From Chloroflexota bacterium (GTDB lineage Bacteria > Chloroflexota > Dormibacteria > CF-121), in assembly GCA_005882775.1 (NCBI GenBank), contig VBDY01000129.1, positions 1-59,319 on the forward strand: a DNA stretch of 59,319 bases, written 5' to 3'. The first letter of the stretch is position 1. Each line of letters opens with the position of its first letter. A program made the position numbers and the translations under genes. The notes beneath the pieces were generated by a model, which was not told where the DNA came from, searched no databases, and worked only from the letters and a program-made list of their open reading frames with translations. This document shows positions 9,157 through 17,838 of this stretch, in pieces.

Positions 9157-10155
9157 ATGGCCATCGAGACCCCCAAGCAGACAGACCTGAAACGGGTCTT
9201 CGACCAGCACCCGGAGCGTCGCTACATCATGTTCGGGGGCAAGGGCGGGCTGGGCAAGACCACCTTCTCGGCCGCGACCGCCTATTGGTTGGCCCGCAGC
9301 GGCAAGCGGGTGCTGGTCTTCTCGGTCGACCCCCAGGCCAGCCTTTCCGACATCTTCCAGCGGGACATCTTCGGCAAGGGCCCGGTCCAGATCATGGAAA
9401 ACCTCTTCGCCCAGGAGATCGATGCCGACTCCCACATCAAGGCATACCAGCAGGAGATCCGCCAGAAGATCCTCGATATGTATGGCCTCACCGAGGTTCC
9501 GGAAGAGGTCGAGAACTACATCCAGGCGGCCAGCGCCGAGCCGGCCATGGAGGAGAGCGCCATTTTCGACGCGGTGGTCGACATCGTGGTCAAGGGCGAC
9601 TACGACTACTACATATACGACCTGGTCCCGCTAGGTCACGCGCTCTACTACCTGTCGATGGCCAAGGTCTACGACGAGTGGATCAACAAGATCACCCACC
9701 TGCGCGAGCAGATGCGGGAGTACGAGCAGGTGGCCAGCGTGATGAAGCGGCAGAAGGTGACCGAGGAGGACCAGATCCTGGCCGAGCTCCAGTACATCAA
9801 GAAGCGGATCAACACGTCCTCCCGGATCCTGACCGACCGGGTCAAGACCGCCTTCTTCTTCGTGGTCGTGCCCGAGGAGATGATCATCCTCGATACCCGC
9901 AAGGCGGCCGAGCTGTTCGCCCGCTTCGACGTTCCGCTCTCGGGATATGTGGTCAACCGGGTGCTCCCCGAGGAGCTGTCCGGCCAGAACGTGCCCGAAT
10001 ACCTGAAGAAGCGGATCACCATGCAGAAGCGCTACATGGGCGATATCCAGAGGACGCTGGGCAAGGATGTGCTCGCCTACGTGCCCGAGCTGGAGCGCGA
10101 TGTCACCGGGCTCGAGGCGATCGAGCGGCTCGCCACCATCATGTACGGCCAATGA
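9157..10155 (+). CDS. ArsA/TRC40/Get3 family ATPase 1
   Basis: GGKGGLGKTT deviant Walker A, SVDPQASL switch I, YDLVPLGH switch II, VVNRV. Confidence 0.9.
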   Translation: MAIETPKQTDLKRVFDQHPERRYIMFGGKGGLGKTTFSAATAYWLARSGKRVLVFSVDPQASLSDIFQRDIFGKGPVQIMENLFAQEIDADSHIKAYQQEIRQKILDMYGLTEVPEEVENYIQAASAEPAMEESAIFDAVVDIVVKGDYDYYIYDLVPLGHALYYLSMAKVYDEWINKITHLREQMREYEQVASVMKRQKVTEEDQILAELQYIKKRINTSSRILTDRVKTAFFFVVVPEEMIILDTRKAAELFARFDVPLSGYVVNRVLPEELSGQNVPEYLKKRITMQKRYMGDIQRTLGKDVLAYVPELERDVTGLEAIERLATIMYGQ

Positions 10156-11186
10156 GCACGGCCCCGCCGGCCGGCGCGCGTGCCGTGACCGACCCGATGG
10201 CCGGATACCTGGAGACCCATCCCGACCTGAAGTACGTGTTTTTCGGAGGCAAGGGTGGGGTGGGGAAGACGGTGATGGCGGGCGCGACCGCGGTCTGGAC
10301 GGCGGAGAAGGGGCGGCGCACGCTGCTGGCCTCGACCAACCCGGTGCACAGTCTCTCCGGGTTGCTCGGCCAGAACGTGTTCGGCAAGCACACGCCCGTC
10401 AACGGCGTCGCCAACCTGTTCGCCTACGAGATCGACACGAAAGACACGATCGAACGGTCGAAGCGCGAGATCCGGGAGAAGATCCAGTGGTTCCTCAAAT
10501 TCGCCGAGATCAGCACCAAGGCCGACGAGTTCGTCGAGTCGGCCACCATGAACCCGGCCTTCGAAGAGTCGGCCATGTTCGAGAACATGATCGACCTGAT
10601 GTTTCGCAACGAGTACGACGTGTATGTCTTCGACACCGCCCCAACCGCGAACGCTCGCCGGCTCCTGGGGATGAGCAAGGTCTACTCCCTCTGGGTCAAC
10701 AAGATGATGAAGAGCCGCGAGGAAGCGCAGAGCTTGCGCGAGATGCTCTCCTTCACCAAGAAGAAGGAGCAGGACCCACTGATGGACTACCTGGTCGAGT
10801 TCCGAGGCCGGATGGAGCACGCCCGCGAGCTCCTGACCGACGACAAGAAGACGGCATTCTTCTTCGTGACCCTGCCCGAGGCGCTGCCCATCGCCGTCAT
10901 CACCCGCTTCATCAACTGGTTCAGCGAGTTCGGAATCCCGGTCGGCGGGGTGCTGGTCAACATGCGGATCGACCGTTCGGTGGTGACGCCGGAAAGCGCT
11001 GCCTTCGTCCGCAACCGGCTAGCCATGCAGGACGAGCACATGCAGACCATCTGGGAAAAGTTCGACTCCCAGGTGCGGGCGATCGTTCCCCTCTTTGAAG
11101 ACGAGGTGCGCGGGTCCGAAATGCTCCGCCGACTGGCCCGGGAGGTCTTCAGCCCGGCGGAGGCGGCGTCGCGTAACGCAGGGTAG
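10152..11186 (+). CDS. ArsA/TRC40/Get3 family ATPase 2 (switch I Asp replaced by Asn)
   Basis: ATGA overlap with ATPase 1; GGKGGVGKTV, STNPVHSL, FDTAPTAN. Confidence 0.9.
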   Translation: MSTAPPAGARAVTDPMAGYLETHPDLKYVFFGGKGGVGKTVMAGATAVWTAEKGRRTLLASTNPVHSLSGLLGQNVFGKHTPVNGVANLFAYEIDTKDTIERSKREIREKIQWFLKFAEISTKADEFVESATMNPAFEESAMFENMIDLMFRNEYDVYVFDTAPTANARRLLGMSKVYSLWVNKMMKSREEAQSLREMLSFTKKKEQDPLMDYLVEFRGRMEHARELLTDDKKTAFFFVTLPEALPIAVITRFINWFSEFGIPVGGVLVNMRIDRSVVTPESAAFVRNRLAMQDEHMQTIWEKFDSQVRAIVPLFEDEVRGSEMLRRLAREVFSPAEAASRNAG

Positions 11187-11817
11187 CTCGCGAGAGCTGG
11201 TGGACCAGCCGGGCAAAGCCGTCCGGCGAGAGGCTGCTTCGATCGGGAACGTTCATGGCGAGGGTCAGGTGCATCCCCTGGCGCCGGATCGACAGCCGTA
11301 CCAGGTTCTTAGCCTGATCTCCCAGCTCCGAGATCAGGTCATTTGCTAGGCGGCGCGGAAGCTCCCCACCGGCCGACGCCAGGCGGAATGAACTTAGAGG
11401 GCTTTCGGTCCAGCGTTCCTGGGCGGCCGCGTGCCGGGCGTCGCCGGCGAGCACTGAACCCGGCCGGTAGAGCTCGAGACCCCAGATCGGCTGCTGGCGC
11501 AAGCCGAGCTGAAGCAGCACCATGTCGCGGCGCCCGTTGATGCGGTTGATGGCCCAGATCATGGGCACGTCCCAGGACTCGGCCAGGCCGGTCAGAGATC
11601 CCTCCGTGAAGGGCGGCTTGAGCCCCTGGACCTCGAGCCGAAACGAGTGGGTGGTGATCCATTGGATGGCCTGCCTTCCTCCAAGCGGATCGAGCGCGCG
11701 CTTGCACCAGACCGCGAGCGTCCGTCCTCGCCGGCGCATGACCTCGTTGCCGACCAGGTACCAGATAACGAGCAGCGCCCCGAGCGCAACCACCACGCCA
11801 ACCAGGGTTTGCGACAC
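11149..11817 (-). CDS. Hypothetical protein with N-terminal membrane anchor
   Basis: Hydrophobic N-terminus VGVVVALGALLVIWYLV; TAGCCT -10-like box 8 nt upstream. Confidence 0.7.
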   Translation of the reverse strand: MSQTLVGVVVALGALLVIWYLVGNEVMRRRGRTLAVWCKRALDPLGGRQAIQWITTHSFRLEVQGLKPPFTEGSLTGLAESWDVPMIWAINRINGRRDMVLLQLGLRQQPIWGLELYRPGSVLAGDARHAAAQERWTESPLSSFRLASAGGELPRRLANDLISELGDQAKNLVRLSIRRQGMHLTLAMNVPDRSSLSPDGFARLVHQLSRATLRYATPPPPG

Positions 11818-11837
11818 TGGGCCTCAGGCTAAGGCGT

Positions 11838-12518
11838 TTAGCGCGACCGAGTCAGCCGCTCCACCAGCCGGCGCTGCTCCGGGTTGCGCAGCTGCTGGGG
11901 CCGGTCGGTCAGGAAGGCGATGAAGCTCTCCGGGTCGAGCTCGTGCCGCTTACGCCCCTGCGCCAGCTCAACCACGCCGTCTCTTACCCGAGCGGAGACC
12001 GTCTCGCCTTCCTCCTCGGCGGCAAACAGGCCGAAGTCGATTCGCCAGCGAGCCCGAGCCGCTTTAGAGCGCGCCGGTACCGGGAGCTCGATGTCGTCCG
12101 CGTGAATCGCGTACTCGCGCGCCAGGTGCCAGACCTGCAGCCGCAAGGGATACGGACCGACCGAGGTCGGGACCTTTCCCCGAACCCCGATCCGCCCCCA
12201 GGCGCGCCGGACTCGCTTCTGCCGCCGCTCCCACTCCGCCAGGACTTCGGCGGGAGTCAGATGGCGGCGCTGGCGCACGCCATGCTCGTTCCAGGCATTC
12301 AGGCTTCCGGGAAAAGCCAGCTCGCCCAGGGTTTCATCGAGGCAGGCTTCGTTGTAGAGCTCGTCGGTGCAGAGGTGGGCCACCACATCCTTCACGCTCC
12401 AGCCGGCGCAGTGGCTCTTCCGGCGCCAGCCCGCGGGATCAAGACTGTGCAGGTGGCGGCGCAGCCGCCGGATCTCCGCGTCATAGGCTGGAAACGGGTC
12501 GGCCGTCTTCGGATTCAT
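11838..12518 (-). CDS. Maleylpyruvate isomerase family (DinB-like, MDMPI) protein
   Basis: W...S.CAGWSVKDVVAHL and EYAIHADDI; start placed at ATG 12518. Confidence 0.85.
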   Translation of the reverse strand: MNPKTADPFPAYDAEIRRLRRHLHSLDPAGWRRKSHCAGWSVKDVVAHLCTDELYNEACLDETLGELAFPGSLNAWNEHGVRQRRHLTPAEVLAEWERRQKRVRRAWGRIGVRGKVPTSVGPYPLRLQVWHLAREYAIHADDIELPVPARSKAARARWRIDFGLFAAEEEGETVSARVRDGVVELAQGRKRHELDPESFIAFLTDRPQQLRNPEQRRLVERLTRSR

Positions 12519-12534
12519 CGGGTAAGATGCCCCA

Positions 12535-13344
12535 ATCGCTTCCCGGGCATCTAGCGATCCTCTCATCTTCGGCACCTACCTCGCACCCTCCTCGGTAGAG
12601 GCCTATCGCTTCGTGGCGGAACAGGTGGGCACGGTCACCGGCCGGGGCGCCAGGCTGGTGGTCGGCCGGAGCTACGATGAGCTCCTCGACAGCTCTGTCG
12701 ACGTTGCCTTCATCTGTGGCTGGCCCTATGTGCGTCTGGTCGCGCAAAACCCGGGCCGGATCGAGCTGCTGGCGGCGCCCGTCCTCAGCGGCTCGCGATA
12801 CCAGGGGAAGCCGGTCTATTTCTCCGATGTGATCGTGCGCGCCGGCAGCCCGGTCGAGCGATTCGAGGACCTTCGCGGGCACTCCTGGTCCTTCAACGAG
12901 CCCACCTCCTACTCCGGATATCTCGCCACGCTTTACCACCTGGCCAGGATGGGCGAGAGGGGGCCCTTCTTCGGTCGCGCGGTCGCCGCCGGGTCGCACC
13001 AGGAATCGATCCGCAAAGTGGCCAGTGGTGAGGTCGACGCTTCGGCCATCGACTCCCAGGTGCTCGAGCTCGAGCTCCGCCGCCACCCGGAGCTGCGACC
13101 GGAGCTCCGCGTCATTGAGTCGTTCGGGCCGGCGGCAATTCAGCCGGTGGTGGCCAGCGACCGGCTGGACGCCGGGCTGCGTCGCGACATCAAGTCGGCC
13201 ATCCGCGCCGTCTCTGGCGAGCCGCTCAGAGCCTGCCTCTTCGAGTCGTTCGTCAGCGTGGACGATGGCGCCTACGACAGAATGCGACAGGCTGAGCAAC
13301 AGGTGATGGCGGCGCGCTTGACCTTGTCTGCTAACCGACTGTGA
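12535..13344 (+). CDS. PhnD/phosphonate-type substrate-binding protein without signal peptide
   Basis: DVAFICGWPY, YFSDVIVR, NEPTSYSGY, GSHQESI, DASAIDS; frame open back to 12526, start uncertain (ATC 12535 or GTG 12613). Confidence 0.8.
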   Translation: MASRASSDPLIFGTYLAPSSVEAYRFVAEQVGTVTGRGARLVVGRSYDELLDSSVDVAFICGWPYVRLVAQNPGRIELLAAPVLSGSRYQGKPVYFSDVIVRAGSPVERFEDLRGHSWSFNEPTSYSGYLATLYHLARMGERGPFFGRAVAAGSHQESIRKVASGEVDASAIDSQVLELELRRHPELRPELRVIESFGPAAIQPVVASDRLDAGLRRDIKSAIRAVSGEPLRACLFESFVSVDDGAYDRMRQAEQQVMAARLTLSANRL

Positions 13345-13891
13345 TCTGGCCCTCCAACAGAATCTCATGGAAGGTCAGTCCGGAGACAGTCAGGACGACG
13401 GTAGCTCCCGGTCCGCCCGCAGTCACCGAGGCAGTGAACGGTGTGGTTTCCCCGGGCGGCGTGGCTCCAAGCCCGGTCACGGTCGCCGTCCCATTCATGA
13501 CTGCCGTTCGGCCTGTTACGTGCACGGAGGTTACCTTCCCGGTCACATACATAGCGTTGACCTCAAACGTCCCGCTCTCGGCACCTGTGGCTGTAGCTGG
13601 GGCCAGGGCGAGGCACTCGAAAGCTCCTCCCTGTCCGTTAGCGTGAAAGGCGAGAACGGTCGTCACCGGTAGAGGCGCGGCCCCGCCGGTGCCGCCCTCG
13701 ATGATTGTCCTGGCGCCGCCAGACACCTGATGATCACGTTCCTTCGAGGCTCCGGCACTAATTGGTCGCGACGTGGAGCCAACCAGGGCAGCTAACACCA
13801 GTGCAGCCCCCACCCAGAGCCAGAGCCGCCGCCATCCGAGACCACGGTTCAGGGGGCTGACTCGCTGAAAAATCGAACCATTGTCCACCAC
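13331..13891 (-). CDS. Hypothetical exported protein
   Basis: Basic then hydrophobic N-terminus (RRLWLWVGAALVLAALVG); Thr/Gly/Val-rich mature part; SD GAGGAGG. Confidence 0.7.
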   Translation of the reverse strand: MVDNGSIFQRVSPLNRGLGWRRLWLWVGAALVLAALVGSTSRPISAGASKERDHQVSGGARTIIEGGTGGAAPLPVTTVLAFHANGQGGAFECLALAPATATGAESGTFEVNAMYVTGKVTSVHVTGRTAVMNGTATVTGLGATPPGETTPFTASVTAGGPGATVVLTVSGLTFHEILLEGQITVG

Positions 13892-13978: not shown

Positions 13979-14626
13979 CTAGTCGTCCTCGCCGTGCCTG
14001 AGCACGTGGAAGGCTGTGCGGTTCGAGTGGTTCCCAGCGGTTGGCGGGTCGGGGTGGAAGAAGTTAACGAAGTGTCTCGTCGCGTTGAACCCCTCATCCA
14101 TAGAATGCGGGCTGCCCACCGGGAGCATGCAGCTCACGACCAGGACTCCATCGAGCCCGTCGGAGTACGCAATCCGCAGTACGGCCAGTCCTGAGCGCGC
14201 ATCTTCCCGGTTTCCGATGTCGTCATCGGCGGTCGGGGGCAGGCTTCCCGGCGCGGGATGCCAGCTGATCAGCTCGGTCACCCGGTAGGTGTTATTGGTG
14301 CCGCTGCTCGGTCCAACGTCAGTGTTGTCGGTCGACCACTTCCCTCCACCGGTCACCTGGCGGGGGTGCCCGGGCCTGAAGGTTCCACTACCCGTGAGGT
14401 TGAGGGCTGAATCATCCTCTGCCCTGGCGGTCGCCTCCCCGCCGGGTTTGATCTCGGGCGCACCACCAATAATGTTGAGCTCGATCAGATCCCACCTGAT
14501 CCTGCTGCCTCCCCGGTTGCCTTCATCCCCGTTTGCGAACGCAGCAGAAGGAACGCTCAACCCGCCGAGGACGCCCGCGGCTGCAACGCCCTTCAGGATC
14601 TGTCGCCGACTGACTTGGTCTTTCAT
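13979..14626 (-). CDS. Hypothetical Tat-exported protein
   Basis: MKDQVSRRQILKGVAAAGVLGGLSVPSAAFA twin-arginine signal with AFA cleavage site; SD-like GGGAGAAGGGG before ATG 14626. Confidence 0.8.
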   Translation of the reverse strand: MKDQVSRRQILKGVAAAGVLGGLSVPSAAFANGDEGNRGGSRIRWDLIELNIIGGAPEIKPGGEATARAEDDSALNLTGSGTFRPGHPRQVTGGGKWSTDNTDVGPSSGTNNTYRVTELISWHPAPGSLPPTADDDIGNREDARSGLAVLRIAYSDGLDGVLVVSCMLPVGSPHSMDEGFNATRHFVNFFHPDPPTAGNHSNRTAFHVLRHGEDD

Positions 14627-14691
14627 GGCCCCTTCTCCCTTGAAAGAAACGACTCTGCCAGGGGCTCGGCTCACGCCGAGACGTGCTCACC

Positions 14692-14903: not shown

Positions 14904-16454
14904 ATAACCGGGCGCGAGCCTTTACGCATCACACGGCGAACCGCGCTCAAGTGGGGCGCGCTGGCCGCAGCCTCGCCTGCGATGGGGCGCCTTCCCCTGG
15001 ATGTTTTCGCCTCCGCCCGGGCCGAGTCCCAGCCGGGCGACAGCATCGTCCTGCTCTGGAATGCTGCCATCCTGCAGGGGGTCCGTGAGTCGAAGCTCGG
15101 TCCCCCAATGGTTGCCCGGGCCCTCGCGATCGCCCACACCTGCGTCTTCGACGCTTGGGCCGCCTACGACCGCCGCGCCGTTGGTACCCGCCTGGGCAGC
15201 TCTCTGCGCAGGCCAGCTCGAGAGCACCGGCTTGCCGATCAGAGGACGGCCATCAGCTTTGCCGCATATCGGGCAGCTGTCGATCTCTTCCCGGCTTCCA
15301 GGTCAACCGTCTTCGACCCGCTCATGACCAGCCTGGGTTATGACCCGGGCAACACCACCACCGACGTCAGCACCCCGGCCGGCGTTGGGAACGTGGCCGC
15401 CAACGCCGTCCTCGACTTCCGCCACTCGGACGGCGCGAACCAGCTGGGCGACAACGTCAACGGTTTGCTCGGCGTCCCGTATTCGGACTACACAAGTTAT
15501 CAGCCGCGCAATGACCCTATGGACTTGCGGGGCAGCTTCGACTCATCGACCGTTCACGACGCCAACCTTTGGCAGCCGCTGCGCTACGTTGACACGAGCG
15601 GAAACCTGGTGACGCCGAAATTCGTTGGCGCCCAATGGCACAGGGTGACGCCGTTCGCACTCACCTCTGCCGCCCAGCTACGGTCGCCGAGCGGTCCCGT
15701 AAGATACGGCTCCGAAGCCTACGCAACCCAGGCCCGAGCCTTGCTCGAGGTCAGTGCCGGTCTGACGGACGAGCAGAAGATGATCGCCGAGTACTGGGCT
15801 GACGGGCCTCACTCCGAACTCCCCCCGGGGCACTGGGACATTTTTGCCCAGTTTGTTTCGCGCCGCGACCGGCACGGTGCCCACCAGAACGGGGTCGAAG
15901 CGGACGTCAAGCTTTTCTTCGCGCTCACGAACGCGATTTTCGATGCCAGCATCTGTTGCTGGGACAACAAGCGAGCCTTCGACAGCGTCCGACCGATCAC
16001 CGCGCTGCGCTACCTCTTTCACGGGCAACAGGTGCCTGCCTGGGCGGGGCCGAATCAGGGCGCGCGACTGATCGACGGCGGTGATTGGTTCCCGTATCAG
16101 CCGAGGACATTCCCGACACCGCCCTTCCCCGGATACAGCTCAGGACATAGCACCTTCAGCGCCGCCGGTGCCGAGATCCTGAAGCTTTTCACGCGGAGCG
16201 AGAGATTCGGGGGGTCGGTTTCCTTCCTCGCCGGGAGTTCGAAGGTCGAACCCGGGGCCGTTCCCGCGCAAGACCTGACTCTGCGCTGGGCGACCTTCCG
16301 GGAGGCGGCCGACCAGGCGGGCCTGTCCCGGCGCTATGGCGGGATCCACTTCGAGCAGGACGATCTCGACGCCCGGATCGCAGGGCGGCTCGTTGCCAGG
16401 CAAGTCTGGGCAAGAGCGCTGCGTTATTTCAAAGGAACCGGTCAAGAGGAATAG
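14904..16454 (+). CDS. Vanadium-dependent haloperoxidase family (PAP2 superfamily) protein with Tat signal
   Basis: KRAFDSVRP, PPFPGYSSGHS and SRRYGGIHFEQD motifs; in-frame ITRRTALKWGALAAA upstream of ATG 14982; ATA 14904 follows SD GGGAGGAG. Confidence 0.88.
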   Translation: MTGREPLRITRRTALKWGALAAASPAMGRLPLDVFASARAESQPGDSIVLLWNAAILQGVRESKLGPPMVARALAIAHTCVFDAWAAYDRRAVGTRLGSSLRRPAREHRLADQRTAISFAAYRAAVDLFPASRSTVFDPLMTSLGYDPGNTTTDVSTPAGVGNVAANAVLDFRHSDGANQLGDNVNGLLGVPYSDYTSYQPRNDPMDLRGSFDSSTVHDANLWQPLRYVDTSGNLVTPKFVGAQWHRVTPFALTSAAQLRSPSGPVRYGSEAYATQARALLEVSAGLTDEQKMIAEYWADGPHSELPPGHWDIFAQFVSRRDRHGAHQNGVEADVKLFFALTNAIFDASICCWDNKRAFDSVRPITALRYLFHGQQVPAWAGPNQGARLIDGGDWFPYQPRTFPTPPFPGYSSGHSTFSAAGAEILKLFTRSERFGGSVSFLAGSSKVEPGAVPAQDLTLRWATFREAADQAGLSRRYGGIHFEQDDLDARIAGRLVARQVWARALRYFKGTGQEE

Positions 16455-16627
16455 CCTTCGGGCGCCGGTTCGCCCAATCCTTTCCTGACCTAGAAGACAC
16501 ACATCAGTTCGCCGGACAGCTGTTTGGTTCTTGACAACTCTGCGCGACGGCGCAGCGTCGATTTGTCGCGGTGAGTCGTGGCCGAGGAAGACGCTAACTC
16601 GGCGTTACGGGAAGAGAGGAGAAGGCC

Positions 16628-17515
16628 ATGGCCAGAGACGGACCATTTGCCGGCCATCCGCATTTTTGGGAGCGGGCGATGTCGCGCCGGCAGTTCCTGG
16701 CAGCATCGGCCGCGGCCTCGGGCGCGGCGATCACGTCTCCGTTGTGGATGCCGGCAATCGTGGAGGCATCCGGCGCCGACCCGGTGCCAATCCCGCCCAA
16801 TCCCGGCTTCTTCGGCTACAGCGTTTCCGGCGGCCCGGGTGCGGAACTCTCGTCGATCTTCAACTTCCGAGGGGTCACGGGAATGGCTACGGTCCAGGGG
16901 AAGGGAACGGGTTGGAACACCGCCACGAGAAAAAAGACCCGGTACTCCTTTGATAGTGACAACCGCTTCATGCAGGGCGAGTACATCGCTGTCAACGGCA
17001 GGCGTCACCGGGGAACCTTCGGCTTCGTCTGACTGGATATCTATGTAGAGGGTCAGGTTGATCCTCTGGCGGACGGGACGCACCAGCGGCACGACTTCGA
17101 TCCGGGGATCACCCCGGACGGCCTGTTCTGGACGTTTCGCATACCGAACAATCGGGTCAGGGTAGAAGCGGGCGACCTGGACCACGGCGCTTCGCTGAGC
17201 CTCCAGGGGCTTTCGCTTTTGGACTACGGCACGCTCGCGAATGCGCTGCTCACGCACGCGACAAAGCCGGTTCGCGCTAGCGCCTCCTTCACCTTGCGAT
17301 GGAGTGGTTCGACCGGGAACACGAGTGCCACCGACCCAGGTCCGAACCGATTCACGTACGAGGGGATCTTCACGCACGCGCGGCTCGCCTGGTCGGCCCG
17401 GGTGCCGAGCCAGCACTTCGCCTTTCAATCAGACCCGGCCAGCACGTCGTTCGAAACCTTCGCGGCGCTCGTCAACGAGCGAAACGGCAGCTTCTCCGAT
17501 ACCGACGACGATTAA
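16628..17515 (+). CDS. Tat-exported hypothetical protein with in-frame UGA at codon 135 (candidate selenoprotein, 295 aa)
   Basis: SRRQFL Tat motif; TGA 17030-17032 followed by 160 in-frame sense codons to TAA 17513-17515; SECIS-like hairpin after the UGA. Confidence 0.65.
17046..17068 (+). promoter_or_regulatory. Candidate bacterial SECIS element
   Basis: (U)AGAGGGUCA-GGU-UGAUCCUCU(G) stem-loop; 23 nt lie between the UGA and the G-starting apical loop. Confidence 0.6.
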
Positions 17516-17577
17516 CCCGACGGAGGCGACGGCTGCTTAACCGGCGTTAGGGAGGCGCCCGCTGTGGGGGGCCTCCC

Positions 17578-17838
17578 CTATTTCTGTCTGCCGCGCTTGC
17601 GGCCGGTCGCCCGGCGCGTCGTTGTCTTGCCGGTAGCTTTCGAGGTTGTGTCGCCAGAGCCCGGCTCGATCACAGCGTCGGCGAGCGCGGCAGCGAGATT
17701 GACCTCGGCCGACGTGGTCGCGGTCGCCACCTCGGCCGCGTTCAACAAGCGGTTTTCGACCTCCGCGGTGACGTCCTTGATGACGTTGCCGGGTTTGACG
17801 TGCTTGGCAGCCTTGCCGGCTTGCCGGGACCGGGCCAT
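17578..17838 (-). CDS. Small hypothetical protein with basic termini
   Basis: 86 aa ORF with TACAAT 6 nt upstream of ATG. Confidence 0.6.
   Translation of the reverse strand: MARSRQAGKAAKHVKPGNVIKDVTAEVENRLLNAAEVATATTSAEVNLAAALADAVIEPGSGDTTSKATGKTTTRRATGRKRGRQK

Follow-up and report, generated by a model that had tools for sequence, protein, structure and literature searches.

A UGA codon conserved across several bacterial phyla very probably encodes selenocysteine in a predicted Tat-exported protein family absent from current selenoprotein catalogues

Introduction

The question raised by the locus described here is whether a TGA triplet separating two open reading frames of a Chloroflexota bacterium is a stop codon or a codon for selenocysteine (Sec). 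The locus lies in a stretch of 59,319 nucleotides, referred to below as the window, comprising positions 1 to 59,319 of contig VBDY01000129.1 (assembly GCA_005882775.1; Dormibacteria, lineage CF-121). The first-pass annotation, made from the letters of the window and a list of its open reading frames, joined the two frames into a candidate Tat-exported selenoprotein and named stop read-through and a simple nonsense mutation as alternatives. Selenoproteins usually have homologues with Cys in place of Sec, and the protein in question matched no selenoprotein family recognized in the first pass. The material presented below supports a genuine Sec-decoding gene at 16628..17515, with a probability of about 90% in our estimate.

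Organization of the gene

The two open reading frames, 16628..17032 (134 aa, ATG start) and 17219..17515 (98 aa, TTG start), share one frame of the forward strand, and the coordinates reported for them and for the single TGA between them at codon 135 were confirmed. Positions 16628 to 17515 (+) thus form one frame of 295 codons, whose sole internal stop is the TGA at 17030-17032 and whose terminal stop is the TAA at 17513-17515; relatives are homologous to its product over residues 5-295. An SD-like purine-rich sequence, GAGGAG, can be read at 16616..16621 (+), 6 nt 5' of the ATG, and 3' of the TAA there is a terminator-like GC hairpin with a T-rich stretch behind it (17564..17581, +), for which the evidence is weak, four such sites having been found versus 1.4 +/- 1.2 in shuffles. 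The 160 sense codons 3' of the TGA (17033..17512, +) would be translated only if UGA135 is decoded, and the first ATG, GTG or TTG among them is at 17219, 62 codons on, in agreement with the initial description. In the read-through product, which has 295 residues and, as claimed, not a single Cys, the UGA falls within GTFGFV-U-LDIY.

The N-terminal part of the protein (ca. residues 1-48, 16628..16771, +) has the features of a Tat substrate, a motif of the S/T-R-R-x-F-L type (SRRQFL, residues 19-24, with the Arg codons at 16685-16690) followed by an Ala/Gly-rich h-region. The NCBIfam model TIGR01409 gives 21.3 bits (cut-off 16.7) and is matched by 43 of 70 family members, while the Pfam model PF10518 is borderline, with 19.3 bits and a cut-off of 22.7. 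The protein is therefore a predicted substrate of the twin-arginine pathway, as first read from the SRRQFL sequence, and cleavage is probable near the VEA/SG junction.

Within the n-region, before the twin arginines, there is a G-H-x-H-F-W motif (16652-16669), unusual for a Tat signal, which is invariant in the members from Chloroflexota and Acidobacteriota and absent from most of those from Actinomycetota. It may mark a dedicated chaperone or metal-handling step.

A TGA joining two open stretches is by itself of little meaning in this DNA. A six-frame count in the window (66% G+C) gave 52 TGA codons flanked on both sides by 90 or more open codons, and the bare pattern is not beyond chance; the present case stands above it because the TGA column is conserved with homology on both sides. 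Two other TGA-joined frames with high G+C at third positions (53147, +, and 47810, -) are low-complexity off-frame translations that look non-coding.

Conservation of the UGA codon

Of 61 related genomes searched in six frames, 14 gave matches, 15 in all, each with one internal TGA; the extra TAG seen in two of the 15 rows is the terminal stop. All these TGAs occupy one alignment column, within the motif G-T-F-G-F-[VI]-U-[LI]-D. In 401 genomes of the phylum, a profile search gave 15 places at E <= 1e-40, 14 with TGA and one (L047) with TGG, and a per-codon check of the phylum loci gave TGA in 24 and TGG in one of 25. When 185,579 species genomes were scanned with patterns, 93 stretches were confirmed and 80 of them kept; all 80 carry TGA, and they span at least five phyla. 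A metagenome scan added 75 loci, with TGA in each of the 73 that cover the column. These sets make 178 locus checks in total (25 + 80 + 73), of which the first two overlap, and as the loci are related sequences the counts across them are not independent. Each of 129 distinct contexts has U at the column, with an invariant Phe at position -4 and an invariant Asp at +2 relative to it, and the base after the UGA is C in 96 and A in 32.

The nearest kin of the window gene, 58-65% identical, are found in Candidatus Dormiibacterota and "Chloroflexi CF" soil MAGs. By genome title, the carriers comprise Ktedonobacterales, Chloroflexia, Thermomicrobiales, Limnocylindria, Terriglobia/Acidobacteriaceae, Armatimonadota, Eisenbacteria and many Actinomycetota, the last represented by Solirubrobacterales, Gaiellales, Streptosporangiaceae, Frankiales and Acidimicrobiales. 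One record among them is of a cultured strain, Candidatus Solirubrobacter pratensis URHD0082 (L119). The search of the 61 relatives, like the selA count given below, takes in the unpublished genomes G014, G016, G027 and G058, none of which has the family.

A divergent sub-family with the motifs DNRVYQG and TFVEI-U-[IL]DL is formed by L014, L046 and L051 (genomes G010 and G373), with the TGA kept. Each of these two genomes has two matches, and the divergent form can thus accompany a standard copy within a single genome. The only DNA-verified member with a codon other than TGA is L047 (G061:C81:446-1195), with TGG for Trp and a branch length of 2.32; it has lost the GLFWT motif, and its C-terminus carries an LPTTG-like sorting signal.

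It had been anticipated that either TGA or Cys would be conserved at the column, with homology on both sides. For TGA this proved true across several phyla; for Cys it did not, the residue occurring in just one of the 12 database proteins in which the column is covered, and the support for Sec therefore lies in the conserved TGA rather than in Sec/Cys pairs. An ordinary residue without TGA conservation, which would have spoken against Sec, was unseen in DNA bar the one TGG among 25 phylum loci, and the two halves never occur as independent genes in variable frame, being always in one frame with no gap.

The protein databases give a different picture of the same family. An exhaustive search of 1.84 billion representatives returned 796 matches at E <= 1e-3. 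Among the best 150 of these 796, 12 span the Sec column; the others break off at query residue 132-134 or start only after 135. The 12 spanning proteins have Trp (six), Ser (three), Cys (one), Phe (one) or Gly (one) at the column. The Cys form, P0008, is 34% identical, with its Cys aligned to U135; no Cys was found at the column in the 80 genome loci, though one of the search patterns demanded a Cys codon. Full-length Trp forms are P0005, P0007, P0011, P0012, P0016, P0112, P0157 and P0158. The six Trp forms looked up are each a singleton on a JGI contig of 1.1-2.3 kb, and P0157 and P0005 extend beyond the usual C-terminus of the family with another Trp, for which reasons the database Trp forms are probably gene calls made under a table reading TGA as Trp (code 4). 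The Ser, Phe and TGG-Trp forms have the longest branches of the tree (1.38-2.32 vs a median of 0.26), and D137 or D156 is also lost in several of them, as expected if Sec and those residues constitute one functional site.

Probable selenocysteine decoding

The source genome (G000) is a MAG, 94% complete and composed of 234 contigs. The Sec machinery sought in it was found: selA and selB adjoin each other on contig C106, selD is on C197, all three passing curated cut-offs, and a tRNA-Sec with the anticodon tca was located on C118 by ARAGORN. In-frame TGA codons are present in two FdhA-like genes (G000:C172:33770-36844, -, and G000:C82:13691-15373, -) and in selD itself (G000:C197:21824-22744, +), and hence Sec decoding appears to be in active use in this genome. 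Among the 61 relatives selA is found in 51, including 12 of the 14 that bear the family. The two remaining carriers, G011 (93% complete) and G032 (75% complete), gave no selA or selB match; both possess selD with its own in-frame TGA, implying Sec decoding there too. In carriers from other lineages selA passes the cut-off in five of five, the unpublished genome G436 being one of them. Among 201 genomes of Thermoleophilia there were one full and two partial matches, too few for a co-occurrence test.

A SECIS-like hairpin at 17046..17068 (+) starts 13 nt after the UGA, with a 10-bp stem formed by 17046-17055 and 17059-17068 and an apical loop GGU (17056-17058). Taken singly, the window hairpin does not stand out (z = -1.31, with 19 of 200 shuffles equalling or exceeding its stability); the evidence is much stronger across the family. 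In a MAFFT alignment of 23 sequences, unfitted to any structure, 71.2% of cells are paired vs 49.1% in shuffles, and the covariation score is 0.561 vs 0.221, a value that none of 500 shuffles attained; with 87 sequences, pairing is 64.1% vs 50.4% and the score 0.396 vs 0.188. Sliding the 3' partners by 1-3 columns leaves only 31-48% pairing, and double changes are seen in all eight of the proposed pairs tested. In a meta-profile of 87 genes over 241 offsets, the lowest mean folding energy lies at +12..+42 after the UGA (-10.07 vs -6.31 kcal/mol, sd 1.2), the energy rank of the hairpin within single genes being modest (median fraction 0.12-0.14).

According to the bSECISearch consensus, the apical loop of a bacterial SECIS reportedly lies ca. 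16-37 nt downstream of the UGA, with a G early in the loop. A stem-loop shortly after the UGA with an early loop G is what is found in the window and in the family: of 87 sequences, 74 have the start of the loop 16-29 nt from the UGA and 75 have a G at one of the first two loop positions, the loop being mostly GGU, GUU, GUC, GGUC or GUG. The control hairpins of the host, those of its fdhA-like genes and selD, start 11-13 nt after the UGA, the fdhA loops being GUU and GGUCU; the loop of the selD hairpin is GCU. RNAalifold gave no consensus structure for the 87-sequence alignment, probably owing to register shifts of 1-3 nt between clades, and an Rfam scan of 16500-17600 gave no SECIS match. A Hammerhead_II match in the same scan (E = 7.3) was dismissed as chance.

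A hairpin of this kind invites another explanation, namely programmed read-through of the UGA without Sec, by near-cognate insertion of Trp, Cys or Arg, the hairpin merely slowing termination. It could promote read-through after a leaky UGA-C context, which most of the distinct contexts have (96 of 129), and the TGG of L047 is a natural Trp form. Set against this are the full Sec machinery, present and in use in the genome, and the agreement of the hairpin in position and loop type with the hairpins of the genome's own fdhA genes. Moreover, if Trp were acceptable, TGG should be frequent, yet it was seen in one of 178 locus checks, on the longest branch. Read-through without Sec is consequently regarded as improbable, and Sec decoding as the preferred reading.

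Coding capacity downstream of the UGA

Selection on the two parts of the gene was compared by the Nei-Gojobori method in 95 moderately diverged pairs, which are not independent. The median dN/dS is 0.23 for 85 codons before the UGA and 0.32 (maximum 0.65) for 140 codons after it, showing both halves to be coding and under purifying selection. Were UGA135 a true stop, the 134-residue Tat protein would be the sole product, with a separate gene downstream or a pseudogene created by a nonsense mutation. Gene callers do split the gene in this way, and most database entries, among the best 150 of 796, are halves; TGAs with long open flanks are numerous in the GC-rich window (the 52 counted above), and a truncated product is possible under selenium limitation. 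A recurrent accident would not, however, place the same stop in the same column of lineages only 31-67% identical, nor would a stop account for the purifying selection seen downstream of it, where no start codon is available for 62 codons. The halves are in one frame without a gap at every locus examined, and a single confident structural model, described below, spans both. A true stop is thus very improbable, clearly more so than read-through.

Contigs from four other soil runs cover 16600-17540, with no change at 17030-17032; two of them are near-identical and may represent the source sample, and two differ elsewhere in the gene. The TGA is therefore no assembly slip, and the differing contigs are not mere copies. 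TGA is also an ordinary stop in the same genes and in the window, ending 34 of 76 complete family genes (TAG 33, TAA 9) and, as the commonest stop, 17 of 32 long ORFs of the window, which excludes a changed genetic code. Although the window comes from a 234-contig MAG and database proteins with Trp or Gly at the column mimic codes 4 and 25, the TGA kept in four other runs, its regular use as a stop and the G+C content of 66% make a sequencing or assembly error, or a lineage-wide code with TGA as a sense codon, the least credible of the explanations, with hardly any probability left to it.

As judged from the comparison of related genes, the UGA codon is conserved and translated, and the machinery and the hairpin argue strongly for Sec as the residue inserted at position 135. 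The proposal of an uncharacterised, predicted-extracellular protein with UGA recoded as Sec is in this way borne out.

Predicted structure and possible function

AlphaFold2, supplied with an alignment of 70 sequences, gave one model covering both halves, with a mean pLDDT of 84.0 and a pTM of 0.81. Residues 1-46 are disordered (pLDDT <50), which fits a signal peptide, and the mature part is all-beta, with pLDDT mostly >90, also over the segment encoded after the UGA. The long strands comprise residues 80-97, 102-120, 126-140, 153-158, 188-199, 215-236, 242-259 and 275-286, and Sec135 is placed in the middle of the strand 126-140.

Conservation follows an i, i+2 pattern on three successive strands: D111-R113-M115-G117-Y119, F131-F133-U135-D137-Y139 and Q153-H155. 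From this pattern and the DSSP string we infer that the conserved residues form one sheet face or pocket, on which Sec135 would lie together with D111, R113, M115, Y119, F131, F133, D137, Q153 and H155. A conserved Cys partner is lacking, hence the protein is not a thiol-disulfide protein of the CxxU/UxxC kind. An LPxTG-like C-terminal sorting signal in two members and in the TGG form fits a surface or extracellular location.

The predicted export by Tat, the absence of a Cys partner for the single Sec and its surroundings of His, Met, Asp and Arg suggest an order of possible roles. The site may bind a soft metal, a metalloid or a cofactor, which is the first, if tentative, choice. Somewhat less probable, though still possible, is a redox catalyst acting via a selenenic acid, which would resist over-oxidation and tolerate the oxidising extracytoplasmic space. 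Use of Sec as the nucleophile of a hydrolase or transferase seems unlikely, and some other role is given no better a chance.

A more comprehensive proposal, put forward with considerable reserve, is that the family represents an obligately Sec-dependent extracellular protein, either an enzyme or a binder of metal, whose all-beta fold and active site would both be new. The site would be made up of the lone Sec and Asp, Arg, His, Met and Tyr residues on one sheet face, and in it Cys would be unable to substitute because the compartment is oxidising and free of thiols. To our knowledge, no thiol reductant has been described in the extracytoplasmic space.

Gene neighbourhood

No conserved neighbour was found among 81 clustered loci, the commonest, a gene for a PhnD-like binding protein, being present in only seven; with no conserved operon, the context gives no function. 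The ORF 12481..13368 (-), considered as a recurring neighbour, turned out to be an antisense frame of the PhnD-like gene 12613..13344 (+), and its tblastn 'homologues' are misleading.

The same-strand gene immediately upstream of the selenoprotein gene (14982-16454, +) codes for a protein with DUF6851 and a VCPO second helical-bundle domain, similar to vanadium haloperoxidases and PAP2-like proteins; a VCPO-like gene adjoins a family member at just a single further locus (L051, 28% identity). Between the PhnD-like and VCPO-like genes are 13979-14674 (-) and 13331-13891 (-), coding for small exported-looking proteins without a Pfam family, one with a Tat signal and the other with an N-terminal hydrophobic segment. 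In L007, L009 and L011, all from one related genus, the selenoprotein gene is situated between an ArsA-like ATPase/o11149 pair and PhnD-like and MDMPI genes. In the window these ArsA-like, o11149, PhnD-like and MDMPI genes (9285-13344) are 3-7 kb upstream of it, the different gene order pointing to local rearrangement.

Relation to known selenoproteins

In searches of Pfam and NCBIfam (June 2026) with 70 members, no model matched the mature domain and only the Tat-signal models responded, in line with the initial impression that no known selenoprotein family was concerned. Profile searches of the PDB gave nothing better than E = 0.035, on the signal peptide, in addition to non-significant Ig-like matches.

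The classic Tat-exported bacterial selenoprotein is the alpha subunit of formate dehydrogenase, FdhA/FdnG. The present protein resembles it (TIGR01553) in the twin-arginine signal, the single UGA-encoded Sec and the hairpin just downstream, and shares the hairpin spacing and GU-type loops with the fdhA copies of its own host. It differs from FdhA in having no sequence relation to it (TIGR01553 is unmatched), in its size (ca. 250 mature residues vs ca. 1000) and in the all-beta model, which has neither molybdopterin nor Fe-S domains, and it lacks the UHxP motif. Glutathione peroxidase (GPx) has a single catalytic Sec with no obligatory nearby Cys. The lone Sec with conserved polar residues around it is a feature in common, a resemblance that is chemical only; unlike GPx and peroxiredoxin-type proteins, the family has no thioredoxin-like alpha/beta fold in its model and no Pfam match, and it is predicted to be extracytoplasmic. 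A thioredoxin-fold selenoprotein of the CxxU/UxxC type was rejected, given the absence of Cys from the window protein, the absence of a conserved Cys column and the all-beta model.

Of the 119 prokaryotic selenoprotein families in Table 1 of a 2026 review (PMC13188914), almost all carry a Pfam, NCBIfam or TIGR identifier, and none of the families in that table having such models matches any of the 70 members, a comparison that covers all but the few with cd or PTHR identifiers or none. Uncharacterised families catalogued there, such as GOS_B, DG, DW, DF, SaoB and SaoX, likewise combine a conserved in-frame UGA with a SECIS-like hairpin, and some are exported too, SaoB and SaoX being given as extracytoplasmic; most families in the table differ from the window family in having many Cys homologues and CxxU/UxxC-type motifs. 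BSepDB (PMC13326102), with 111 families, is presented as a compilation of previously reported families only. Literature searches brought up no description of the family, though the supplementary tables of selenoprotein papers might list it. The gene accordingly very probably founds, as far as sequence comparison can tell, a selenoprotein family absent from current catalogues, nearly always with Sec and spread through aerobic soil phyla.

Conclusions

The recoding mechanism itself is canonical. A single gene would give a Tat-exported protein of ca. 295 residues, in which UGA at codon 135 is decoded as Sec by a tRNA-Sec charged through SelA and SelD and delivered by SelB, the latter being recruited by the hairpin beginning 13 nt downstream of the UGA. 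The protein would fold in the cytoplasm before export through the Tat pathway, and its all-beta mature domain would present Sec135 in mid-strand. The family occurs in soil Chloroflexota, Dormibacteria-like MAGs among them, and in Actinomycetota, Acidobacteriota, Armatimonadota and Eisenbacteria.

Selenoprotein catalogues, such as those of PMC13188914 and PMC13326102, have been built largely by methods that need Cys-containing homologues, and the deep-Sep paper (PMC12013277) contains the statement that families without such homologues may be missed. The family described here is such a case, being nearly always Sec-containing, without a Pfam or NCBIfam model and split into two "hypothetical" halves in nearly all database entries; hundreds of truncated annotations could be corrected. 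Should the tentative proposal of an obligately Sec-dependent extracellular protein prove true, the family would have escaped selenoprotein finders dependent on Sec/Cys pairs, and it would be one of the causes for the retention of the Sec machinery by aerobic soil Chloroflexota, Actinomycetota and Acidobacteriota. The finding opens an exported, partner-less Sec site to biochemistry and offers a concrete test case for the role of selenium in aerobic soil bacteria beyond formate dehydrogenase.
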